Origin: a virus
Taxonomy: Duplodnaviria; Heunggongvirae; Uroviricota; Caudoviricetes
Length of the DNA: 9,484 nucleotides
IMG/VR virus record: IMGVR_UViG_2695420821_000007
Strand: one strand, 5' to 3'
Every line of letters starts with the position of its first letter. The first letter of the stretch is position 1. The position numbers and the translations under genes are program-made. Under the pieces are notes generated by a model. That model made no database searches and was not told the DNA's origin. It saw nothing but the letters and a program-made list of their open reading frames with translations. Shown in pieces: positions 3,180 through 3,485 of this stretch.

Positions 3180-3290
3180 TTAAGACGCGCCAGGCAGTGG
3201 AAAAGCAAATAGCAACCAGCATATTAGTGAAAATGAAATGCCGACGATTACACAGAGGATCTTCGCCAGCGTTATGAGCTTGTCTGACAT
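3180..3290 (-). CDS. Hypothetical 36-aa hydrophobic membrane peptide (MSDKLITLAKILCVIVGISFSLICWLLFAFPLPGAS)
   Basis: ATG at 3290 with an AGAGGA Shine-Dalgarno 6 nt upstream that directly abuts the stop codon of the 60-aa ORF (translational coupling). Single predicted transmembrane helix. Too short for the supplied ORF track. Ends 31 nt before the Rz start. Confidence 0.35.
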   Translation of the reverse strand: MSDKLITLAKILCVIVGISFSLICWLLFAFPLPGAS

Positions 3291-3302
3291 GCTTAATCCT
3301 CT

Positions 3303-3485
3303 TCACGATTTCAACGCAATGACCAGTTTTGCCAGCCCATACAGCATCGGAGACACAGCAATACCGACCGCCACCCACTTAATAGCAAAAGCCAGCGCTC
3401 TGCTGACGTCATCAGTTACAGGCGCTTTCAGTTCAAGGCCGTTTTTCATAGTCAATCTCAACAGAATTCGTTTATACTTTCCCAT
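3303..3485 (-). CDS. Hypothetical 60-aa small membrane protein (MGKYKRILLRLTMKNGLELKAPVTDDVSRALAFAIKWVAVGIAVSPMLYGLAKLVIALKS)
   Basis: First in-frame ATG at 3485 with an AGGGAG Shine-Dalgarno 3-4 nt upstream. Basic N-terminus followed by a roughly 28-residue hydrophobic stretch. The longer GTG-start version in the ORF track would overlap the terminator hairpin, so the ATG start is preferred. Confidence 0.45.
   Translation of the reverse strand: MGKYKRILLRLTMKNGLELKAPVTDDVSRALAFAIKWVAVGIAVSPMLYGLAKLVIALKS

Follow-up and report, generated by a model that had tools for sequence, protein, structure and literature searches.

The lysis cassettes of lambdoid and Shiga toxin (Stx) phages are usually described as consisting of a holin, an endolysin and the Rz/Rz1 spanins (e.g. 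PMC8136144). In the window analysed here, i.e. the entire 9,484-nucleotide (nt) stretch of the IMG/VR virus record IMGVR_UViG_2695420821_000007 (Caudoviricetes), the stop codon of the endolysin gene and the start codon of Rz are 491 nt apart, and the intervening segment contains a hairpin and two small open reading frames (ORFs), denoted A and B, of 60 and 36 amino acids (aa), respectively. The two ORFs between a signal-arrest-release (SAR) endolysin and Rz/Rz1 were pointed out in an earlier note made from the sequence alone, and their presence is confirmed, along with the Shine-Dalgarno sequence ahead of each, the abutment of the A stop codon on the Shine-Dalgarno of B, and the end of B shortly (30 nt) before the Rz ATG. 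The features of this segment and the genes that flank it are the following.

3641..4174, minus strand: SAR-type endolysin, an R21-like lysozyme of 177 aa (PF00959 Phage_lysozyme, 1.5e-24; phrog_7 endolysin)
3519..3551, no strand: G+C-rich hairpin of 13-14 bp with A-run and T-run flanks (terminator scan; folding z-scores -2.3 and -2.9)
3489..3495, minus strand: Shine-Dalgarno of A, AAGGGAG, 3 nt 5' of the ATG (read from the sequence; conserved in E. coli copies)
3303..3485, minus strand: ORF A, a 60-aa small membrane protein with an ATG start, MGKYKRILLRLTMKNGLELKAPVTDDVSRALAFAIKWVAVGIAVSPMLYGLAKLVIALKS (WP_001303555.1; phrog_1115)
3297..3302, minus strand: Shine-Dalgarno of B, AGAGGA, directly after the TGA stop of A (read from the sequence)
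3180..3290, minus strand: ORF B in the form found in the window, a hydrophobic 36-aa peptide with an ATG start, MSDKLITLAKILCVIVGISFSLICWLLFAFPLPGAS (frameshifted allele)
3157..3290, minus strand: ancestral B gene, 43 codons plus stop in relatives (WP_001280929.1, 43 aa)
2682..3149, minus strand: Rz i-spanin, 155 aa (Pfam Phage_lysis, 2e-48; phrog_13)
2929..2744, minus strand: Rz1 o-spanin, embedded in Rz (Pfam Rz1, 1.7e-21; phrog_3198)

Roughly a fifth of the complete Escherichia coli genomes carry one or two such extra membrane-peptide genes between the endolysin and Rz, and these genes are apparently unstudied. Judging from the comparisons described below, A and B are real genes that code for membrane peptides and are not the holin of the cassette; these identity claims are much firmer than the functional claim, namely that the two peptides have a role in the membrane steps of lysis.

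Two conserved genes for small membrane peptides

The predicted product of ORF A is 100% identical to the RefSeq protein WP_001303555.1 and matches, over its entire length (residues 1-60, E=6.6e-42), phrog_1115, a PHROG family of unknown function. The ATG-started 60-aa frame is kept in 14 of the 16 distinct A alleles, the ratio of non-synonymous to synonymous substitution rates (dN/dS) is 0.12-0.19, and the corresponding polymorphism ratio (pN/pS) in the annotated frame, 0.19, is the lowest of all six frames. Within the core of the gene (codons 13-60), the variable sites are distributed over the three codon positions as 15/5/31. The 12 N-terminal residues stay conserved in the protein even where the DNA sequences diverge, which argues that the 60-aa form is genuinely coding. 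By these measures, A is a real gene under strong purifying selection. A 109-aa ORF on the opposite (plus) strand, 3238-3567, was considered as a gene and rejected, since it scores a worse pN/pS than the sense frame of A does (0.33 vs 0.19), lacks a conserved start and encloses the hairpin.

The layout of the A protein is a basic N-terminal helix followed by a long, weakly hydrophobic C-terminal helix. In the AlphaFold2 model (mean predicted local distance difference test score, pLDDT, 72.5), these helices span residues 3-14 (short, basic) and 22-59 (long), and the net charge ahead of the C-terminal helix is +5. According to the hydrophobicity analysis, the protein ends (...VIALKS) two residues past the transmembrane helix, with a net charge of +1 in this tail, and its hydrophobic region is a weak one in which Ala, Gly and Val abound and which Lys and Pro interrupt. 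A second in-frame methionine, Met13 (ATG 3449..3447), is near-invariant and is preceded in most members by its own GAGG 7 nt upstream; initiation at this codon could yield a 48-aa form. Distant members of the A family were traced via exact-protein look-ups plus a further locus scan, the broad family alignments being too divergent to use in locus scanning. All members traced share the motif x-[K/N]-Y-[K/R]-R-[I/F]-L-[L/M]-R-L-[T/S]-M-K-N-G, after which come a linker and a hydrophobic helix, in many cases with RWW at its end.

B was described in the earlier note as a 36-aa peptide with a single helix. The ORF and the hydrophobic helix are indeed present, but the 36-aa form is not the norm of the family: relative to ML35 and O157:H7, the window carries a 2-bp AT insertion at 3221-3224 that turns the usual 43-aa peptide, MSDKLITLAKILCVIVGISFSLMLVAICFSTAWRVLTLSWLVG, into the 36-aa one. 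The 43-aa form matches phrog_4906, another PHROG family of unknown function, along its full length (residues 1-43, E=7.3e-24); the 36-aa form matches it at residues 1-28 only (E=3.4e-12). The length of B is 43-44 aa in 74 of the 78 distinct contexts, and the start, the Shine-Dalgarno and the N-terminal half are kept across variants that are 60-100% identical, with a variable C-terminal half. The dN/dS of B is 0.35-0.43, and its pN/pS in the annotated frame (0.41) is the lowest of the six. From this conservation, B is a real gene as well, and the copy in the window is a frameshift allele of the 43-aa peptide. B contains a strong transmembrane segment (residues 11-29, 19 residues) with a hydrophobicity comparable to that of the Rz membrane anchor, and ends (...LSWLVG) 14 residues past the helix, with a net charge of +1. 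Thus, the check for transmembrane helices that the earlier note had proposed came out positive for both peptides, by hydrophobicity analysis and, for A, by the AlphaFold2 helices.

The exact 36-aa allele is found in 15 complete E. coli records, several of which are plasmids of 59-102 kb, and is called a 'frameshifted' pseudogene by the Prokaryotic Genome Annotation Pipeline (PGAP). Both copies of this allele that were examined sit in decayed prophage DNA. The first is on plasmid pUTAK-1-pO45 of strain UTAK-1 (18458-18591; locus L184), where a fragment comprising B, Rz and perC, flanked by insertion sequences (IS), lies by an NleH pseudogene; the second is in ML35 (2989253-2989386; locus L185), in a degraded second prophage copy beside NleH and EspS effector genes. 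Other altered alleles of B occur in the IMG/VR loci L028, L029 and L036 and in loci L021 and L099: one has a frameshifted C-terminal half, …LRLDDVVFVGDAGVRGI, with a TGA stop that overlaps the Rz ATG, and another has lost the stop codon, resulting in a 65-aa read-through form.

The two genes are closely spaced with each other and with Rz. The A stop is followed after 12 nt by the B start, and the ancestral stop codon of B (TGA, 3159-3157) lies inside the Rz Shine-Dalgarno, 7 nt 5' of the Rz ATG. Because the A stop abuts the Shine-Dalgarno of B and the normal B stop lies inside that of Rz, the three genes form a translationally linked chain. The distance from the B stop to the Rz start is 7 nt in 41 and 11 nt in 24 of the 78 distinct B contexts (65/78), with two N-terminal types of Rz. 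In the window, the tight B-Rz coupling is lost because the 2-bp insertion leaves only the truncated, altered 36-aa peptide.

Neither peptide matches a named family, in agreement with the earlier note. Searches with A, with both forms of B (36 and 43 aa) and with an 86-aa GTG-extended version of A detected no meaningful family in Pfam, NCBIfam or PADLOC, the only Pfam hit at E<=1 being a chance-level match of the 36-aa form to DUF3930 (E=0.36), and sequence searches of the PDB with the A and B alignments matched nothing. The possibilities that B is a duplicated transmembrane domain of Rz or a paralogue of A are both unsupported (profile comparison probability <1% in each case).

The hairpin and transcription of the module

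The hairpin between the endolysin stop and A is terminator-like in both directions. A G+C-rich hairpin with A-run/T-runs precedes each of the A-family genes examined, 62-99 nt 5' of the MKNG codon (~28 loci, including L170, L171, L173, L174, L176, L180, L183 and L186-L204). At least seven different stem sequences are found among these loci, which suggests selection for the structure. Free energy alone does not discriminate the hairpin from its surroundings, with 29% of random segments from the same loci reaching <=-18 kcal/mol, so that the argument rests on the terminator form and the constant position. On this comparative evidence, the hairpin is part of the A module. In some A-family loci, it is located in the middle of an essential late operon, e.g. 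within a baseplate module.

The promoter scan revealed no promoter-like site on the coding (minus) strand between the endolysin gene and Rz (2600-4300), and the hairpin is separated from the A start by only ~30 nt; it follows that A and B must be transcribed through the hairpin. No terminator-like hairpin was found between A/B and Rz. On the plus strand, there is a sigma-70-like site at 3449-3478 (TAGTCA-18-TATACT), antisense to the first codons of A. Together with the bidirectional hairpin, this site would yield a putative antisense RNA of ~75 nt covering the Shine-Dalgarno and the start codon of A. The TATACT hexamer is invariant in six divergent contexts, yet, when followed through ~28 contexts, it overlaps the conserved Lys-Tyr codons and is degenerate or absent in distant members; given that the hexamers coincide with conserved codons, coding constraint would account for their conservation.

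The Rfam search of the whole window (E<=1) produced no match, and AgvB, AsxR, Esr41 and STnc100 are absent; the Pas small RNAs are located elsewhere, upstream of the holin. The hairpin was also considered as the terminator of the prophage small RNA HnrS (PMC13502914), and this assignment was rejected: nothing in the window is complementary to the mazF 3' end over >=10 nt, and the only 10-nt complementarity found in this test was to a sequence ~40 nt upstream of the hha ribosome-binding site.

Distribution and genomic neighbourhoods

Homologues of A and B are confined to prophages of Escherichia and Salmonella. A search of 1.84 billion representative proteins with the A profile yielded 24 clusters; among species-representative genomes, there was no A and, for B, only a 328-bp contaminant-like contig. 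The region is present in ~1,085-1,199 of the 5,426 complete E. coli genomes, ~1,085 of which have >=80% of the 1.7-kb endolysin-to-Rz stretch. Over this stretch, the window shares 99.5-99.6% identity with ML35 and other strains, and 98.7-98.8% with O157 strains, O157:H7 among them. Both A and B are present in plaque-forming phages induced from ECOR strains, and Escherichia phage PhiR12_3 (PV340552) is a plaque-forming carrier. The survey of related prophages suggested in the earlier note shows that the pair is conserved between the endolysin and Rz: the dominant order in 166 related loci is holin, (YdfR), endolysin, A, B, Rz. B is also found without A.

The contents of the slot between the endolysin gene (R) and Rz differ among related phages. 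In Stx phages of the 933W/Sakai type, the slot contains the hairpin, sometimes an IS, the gene for the Ant anti-repressor and then a 44-aa B just before Rz. In the Stx2c phage LC727878 (locus L004, ~2695-2796), the hairpin is followed by an unrelated 33-aa single-helix peptide, MMAEKLSTWKFILIWLVFVIMASGYFIGQIRWW (phrog_6632), that abuts Rz. Like many distant members of the A family, the 33-aa peptide ends in RWW, and it may be a truncated relative of A. The genes in the slot are therefore optional in the manner of a moron: the slot is occupied by A and B, by Ant and B or by the phrog_6632 peptide, or is empty. A survey of 279 Stx phages (PMC8136144) gives the cassette as pinholin, SAR endolysin and Rz/Rz1, lists Ant, found in 126 genomes, among the regulatory genes, and does not mention the small ORFs.

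Beyond the cassette type seen in the window, A lies between endolysin and spanin genes in at least seven other cassette types. The upstream neighbour of A is usually an endolysin, from four PHROG families: phrog_7 (two SAR-lysozyme subtypes), phrog_873, phrog_181 (GH19-like, with and without a peptidoglycan-binding domain) and phrog_315 (GH108). The holins that accompany these endolysins differ as well, including a lambda S-like Phage_holin_3_1, holin_8 with holin_3_7, and phrog_1350. Downstream, the neighbour is often an i-spanin of one of two families, phrog_13 or phrog_312, at a distance of 0-10 nt. The endolysin-A-spanin arrangement is seen in E. coli, E. marmotae, Salmonella and metagenomic phages.

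Several individual loci depart from this pattern. On the E. marmotae chromosome (locus L176, 1153-2835), the lysis genes ahead of A-B are of an entirely different set, comprising Phage_holin_8, Phage_holin_3_7 and a GH108 endolysin; no Rz-like ORF was found downstream of A-B at this locus, the next gene being ParB-like. Tandem A-like paralogues are present in a Salmonella locus (L174, 2305-2668) and in a metagenomic one (L183, 325-737), where each copy has its own upstream hairpin. The Salmonella pair lies between a SASA-domain tail-fibre-like protein and the assembly chaperone of the latter (DUF1353, phrog_1158).

A proposed role in the membrane steps of lysis

The functional reading favoured here, to which we would give about an even chance, is that A and B are optional, non-essential, late-expressed accessory peptides of the lysis cassette that reside in the inner membrane and have a role in the membrane steps of lysis. 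The argument for such a role is that A recurs right after unrelated endolysins and right before unrelated spanins. The same diversity of partners suggests that the role would be independent of the SAR/pinholin mechanism.

The sequence of events could be as follows. RNA polymerase that has been modified by Q and thereby made resistant to terminators would read from the late promoter through the hairpin, which would be the sole route of transcription of A and B. Read-through of terminators by Q-modified polymerase is established lambda biology. A and B would then be made late, alongside the spanins, with the hairpin shielding them from stray transcription in the lysogen. A would insert into the membrane as a tail-anchored protein, with the basic amphipathic N-terminal helix at the cytoplasmic face and the weakly hydrophobic C-terminal helix in the membrane, and B would insert as a single, strongly hydrophobic helix. 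Once there, the peptides might tune the membrane steps of lysis, affecting either the timing or the hand-over from the endolysin to the spanins, in a position and a kind of role similar to those of P2 LysA.

Several observations weigh against this reading. The literature search found no experiment or publication on A or B, and the searches of Pfam, PHROG, NCBIfam and PDB found no homology of either peptide to any lysis regulator. Related cassettes dispense with the pair: in lambda, R is directly followed by Rz, and in the K-12 prophage Qin, rrrQ overlaps rzpQ with nothing in between. The slot evidently tolerates cargo unrelated to lysis, given that the unrelated Ant gene occupies it in Stx phages. 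Several A-family genes adjoin tail-fibre/Tfa, tail-assembly or baseplate genes rather than lysis genes, and because of these tail-region members, the function of A cannot hinge on adjacency to the endolysin or Rz. As for B, its dN/dS is indistinguishable from that of the mirror antisense frame (0.41 vs 0.45), and frameshifted alleles exist, that of the window among them.

A bolder version of the lysis hypothesis, which we consider rather improbable, is that 'hairpin plus A' represents a new mobile class of lysis-cassette component that has been recruited repeatedly at the endolysin/i-spanin junction and controls the last membrane step. In this version, A is a tail-anchored peptide, recognisable by x-Y-K-R-I-L-L-R-L-T-M-K-N-G...(RWW or LKS), that would have been taken up by phages with unrelated holins, endolysins (SAR and non-SAR) and spanins, and would restrain the i-spanin or the membrane until the wall is degraded, as an 'anti-spanin' or a general lysis clock, while B would serve as an additional partner, specific to E. 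coli and coupled to Rz. The repeated recruitment of the A family to the endolysin-spanin junction is the lead most worth testing.

If A and B tune the timing of lysis or the spanin step, this would have consequences for the burst of the phage and, for Stx phages, for when the toxin is released, and would add a new small-protein player to a textbook pathway.

Alternative explanations

The most serious competitor, although in our estimate an unlikely one, is that the hairpin-plus-A cassette and B are morons, i.e. mobile cargo at the junctions of late-operon modules, with membrane products that serve a role other than lysis, such as superinfection exclusion, blocking of DNA entry or alteration of the host envelope. 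The presence of A and B is patchy among close phage relatives and their taxonomic range is narrow (for A, 24 clusters among 1.84 billion proteins and none in species-representative genomes), tandem A paralogues exist, A-family genes can follow tail-fibre/Tfa genes, separate a tail fibre from its chaperone or lie within a baseplate module, and Ant fills the same slot in Stx phages, all of which fits mobile cargo. However, the terminator is located 5' of the gene, not 3', and, as no promoter was found and the space from hairpin to start codon is too short for one, expression in the lysogen of the kind known for lambda bor and lom is unlikely. Moreover, most A contexts directly follow an endolysin, far above what random placement in the late region would give, translation of B and of many A genes is coupled to that of the i-spanin, and the PADLOC defence families contain no match to A or B.

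It is quite improbable that one or both ORFs are inert as proteins, being either upstream frames that pass ribosomes on to Rz or, in the case of B, decaying junk. This explanation concerns mainly B, for which the constraint is weak (dN/dS ~0.4) and inseparable from that of the mirror antisense frame, the C-terminal half is variable and several frameshift alleles are known; the stop-to-start geometry would suit translational coupling. It is hard to reconcile with the strong purifying selection on A, whose motifs are conserved across relatives that are 40-76% identical, or with the retention of the length, start, Shine-Dalgarno and invariant N-terminal half of B across its 60-100% identical variants. 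Furthermore, the three unrelated peptides found ahead of Rz (A, B and the 33-aa phrog_6632 protein) are all single transmembrane helices, and a pure coupling device needs none.

The earlier note proposed that the pair could be an atypically placed holin/antiholin or release factor, and the corresponding reading, in which A and B are a holin/antiholin, a pinholin or a releasin that frees the SAR endolysin in the absence of a normal holin, is now very improbable. The proposal leaned on the lack of a visible holin upstream of the endolysin. This holds for the window as such but is an artefact: the cassette seems holin-less because a scaffold gap of 11 N falls in ydfR, and an S21-type holin lies beyond it. 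The interrupted gene and the gap are located as follows.

4225..4546, minus strand: 3' part of ydfR (Pfam DUF1327), colinear with ML35 and O157:H7
4547-4557: 11-N scaffold gap interrupting ydfR

In ML35 and O157:H7 (99.5-98.7% identity), the class II holin WP_000411809.1 (68 aa) is encoded upstream of ydfR and the lysozyme gene, so a canonical holin is found just past the gap in complete genomes, a finding that the earlier note had named as part of what would refute its proposal. An S21-type holin is present in the 166 related loci wherever the contig extends far enough. The gene order in intact genomes is SASA esterase, class II holin (68 aa, S21-type), YdfR, lysozyme, WP_001303555.1 (60 aa, hypothetical), WP_001280929.1 (43 aa, hypothetical), Rz/Rz1, PerC, YlcI/YnfO and terminase. 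With a holin upstream in genomes 99.5% identical to the window, there is nothing for A and B to replace.

The properties of the peptides themselves point the same way. These are two small membrane peptides within a SAR-endolysin cassette, the helix of A is weak and Ala/Gly-rich like SAR and pinholin domains, and the in-frame starts of A (M1 and M13), the long form having four extra basic residues, loosely resemble the dual-start motifs of holin/antiholin genes. Nevertheless, neither peptide matches the holin, pinholin, releasin or type I toxin families against which the earlier note suggested searching: there was no hit to Pfam or PHROG holin families, to any PHROG of the lysis category, or to the releasin family DUF2730 (PF10805). 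The charged C-terminal tail of a holin is not seen in A or B (2 and 14 residues past the helix, net +1 each, compared with 18 residues and net +3 in the genuine S21 holin), and neither peptide has the 70-aa acidic cytoplasmic domain of a releasin. A-family genes also follow non-SAR endolysins (GH108, GH19, phrog_873) that come with holins of their own, so the link of A is not specific to the release of SAR endolysins, and B is frameshifted in the window and elsewhere. On all these counts, A and B are not the holin of the cassette. The practical lesson is that a scaffold gap can mimic a holin-less lysis cassette; with that artefact set aside, the pair is of modest interest, as uncharacterised accessory peptides of the membrane.

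The least probable explanation is a type I toxin-antitoxin-like system in which A, which is small and hydrophobic, is a membrane toxin whose translation is controlled by the ~75-nt antisense RNA running from the promoter at 3449-3478 to the hairpin at 3519-3551: the plus-strand promoter-like site is at exactly the fitting place, its TATACT is invariant across the six divergent contexts and the hairpin, with good T-runs on the antisense side, accompanies A in every context, but the hexamers overlap codons (K-Y...L-T/S-M) that are conserved as protein where the DNA differs and fade in distant members, one promoter-like match is within chance (1.9 expected per region), the minus strand (2600-4300) showed no promoter from which a toxin mRNA could start, and there is no match to an Rfam family, to HnrS or to the type I toxins in Pfam and NCBIfam (Hok/Gef, Ldr, Ibs, TisB, ShoB, Zor, DinQ).

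Structure of the window and other genes

The window is a scaffold rather than a natural sequence. It contains two runs of 11 N each, at 4547-4557 and 6914-6924, and a block of 2.4-2.6 kb that is present three times, 424-2983 being identical to 6925-9484 (100%) and nearly so to 4558-6913 (99.6%), with the 11-N gaps between copies. The tripled block comprises the 5' part of the gene for the terminase large subunit, the small terminase subunit, ylcI/ynfO, perC and the 3' half of Rz. Colinearity with the complete ML35 genome is limited to positions 1-4546 of the window.

The N-terminus of the endolysin, MNAKIRYGLSAAVLALIGAGASAP, is Gly/Ala-rich and weakly hydrophobic, which, as read off the sequence, is the SAR type; in relatives, the RefSeq label for this protein is 'lysozyme' or rrrQ. 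In most copies of the cassette, though not in all, the gene for YdfR (DUF1327, 114 aa; full gene at 3732-4076 of locus L001) separates the pinholin from the SAR endolysin; it is a further uncharacterised gene within the lysis cassette. Just 3' of Rz, there is a 46-aa ORF, MAKNDFCDKYFEYYLQVNGVGHMDRNITIENEVYARIVWAEKAKTR (2459-2599 of the window, minus strand; 5700-5840 of locus L001), which is kept in ML35 and unannotated there. Between Rz and the terminase genes, a gene for a PerC-family regulator (1902-2216, minus strand) and a convergent YlcI/YnfO (DUF3950) gene (1596-1820, plus strand) are found, and this pair is repeated at 6036-6350/5730-5954 and at 8403-8717/8097-8321. In lambda, the position held here by the PerC and YlcI/YnfO genes is that of bor and cos.

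Comparison with known systems

The classic lambdoid morons (bor and lom of lambda, gp15 of HK97) are preceded by a promoter of their own, followed by a terminator, and expressed in the lysogen. The A and B genes resemble these in being optional genes for small envelope proteins that are inserted between late genes and are patchy among related phages; they differ in the upstream position of the terminator, in that the scan revealed no promoter, and in their translational linkage to Rz.

The dual-start holins, such as S21 68/71, are likewise small inner-membrane proteins of the lysis cassette, and A, too, has two possible starts, the longer product carrying a positively charged extension. However, the true S21-type holin is encoded by a separate gene upstream, and A and B have one helix, not two, and are located downstream of the endolysin. 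The type I toxins of E. coli prophages (Hok/Sok, e.g. hokW-sokW of Sp5, PMC8621323; Ldr, Ibs, TisB, ZorO) are also hydrophobic prophage peptides of <60 aa, and the candidate antisense RNA that ends at the hairpin beside the A start codon would add to the likeness. The difference is that A and B have no detected toxin promoter and are not stand-alone genes but parts of a late operon to which they are coupled.

The Mu releasin gp25 (DUF2730; PMC9239132) is a 99-aa protein from a phage without a holin; its transmembrane domain is N-terminal (N-out, C-in) and its cytoplasmic domain, of 73 aa, is acidic. Similarly to A and B, it is a small membrane-tethered protein encoded a few genes 3' of a SAR endolysin and has been proposed to act at the endolysin step. 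The layout of A is the reverse of that of gp25 (a basic N-terminal domain and a C-terminal helix), and B lacks a soluble domain. Furthermore, the cassette type of the window has a holin, and A accompanies non-SAR endolysins too.

In phage P2, the lysA gene, located between the endolysin gene K and the spanin genes lysB/lysC, is reportedly non-essential and is said to affect the timing of lysis, not the formation of lesions. LysA is a protein of ~140 aa with several transmembrane segments. A gene for a membrane protein thus occupies the place between endolysin and spanins in P2 as A and B do here, the main difference being that LysA is multi-pass, whereas A and B are single-helix peptides of 60 and 43 aa. 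Neither A nor B has a match to a lysis-annotated PHROG or Pfam family, the comparison having been made via the family libraries. By analogy of position and presumed role, P2 LysA appears to be the nearest analogue of A and B.

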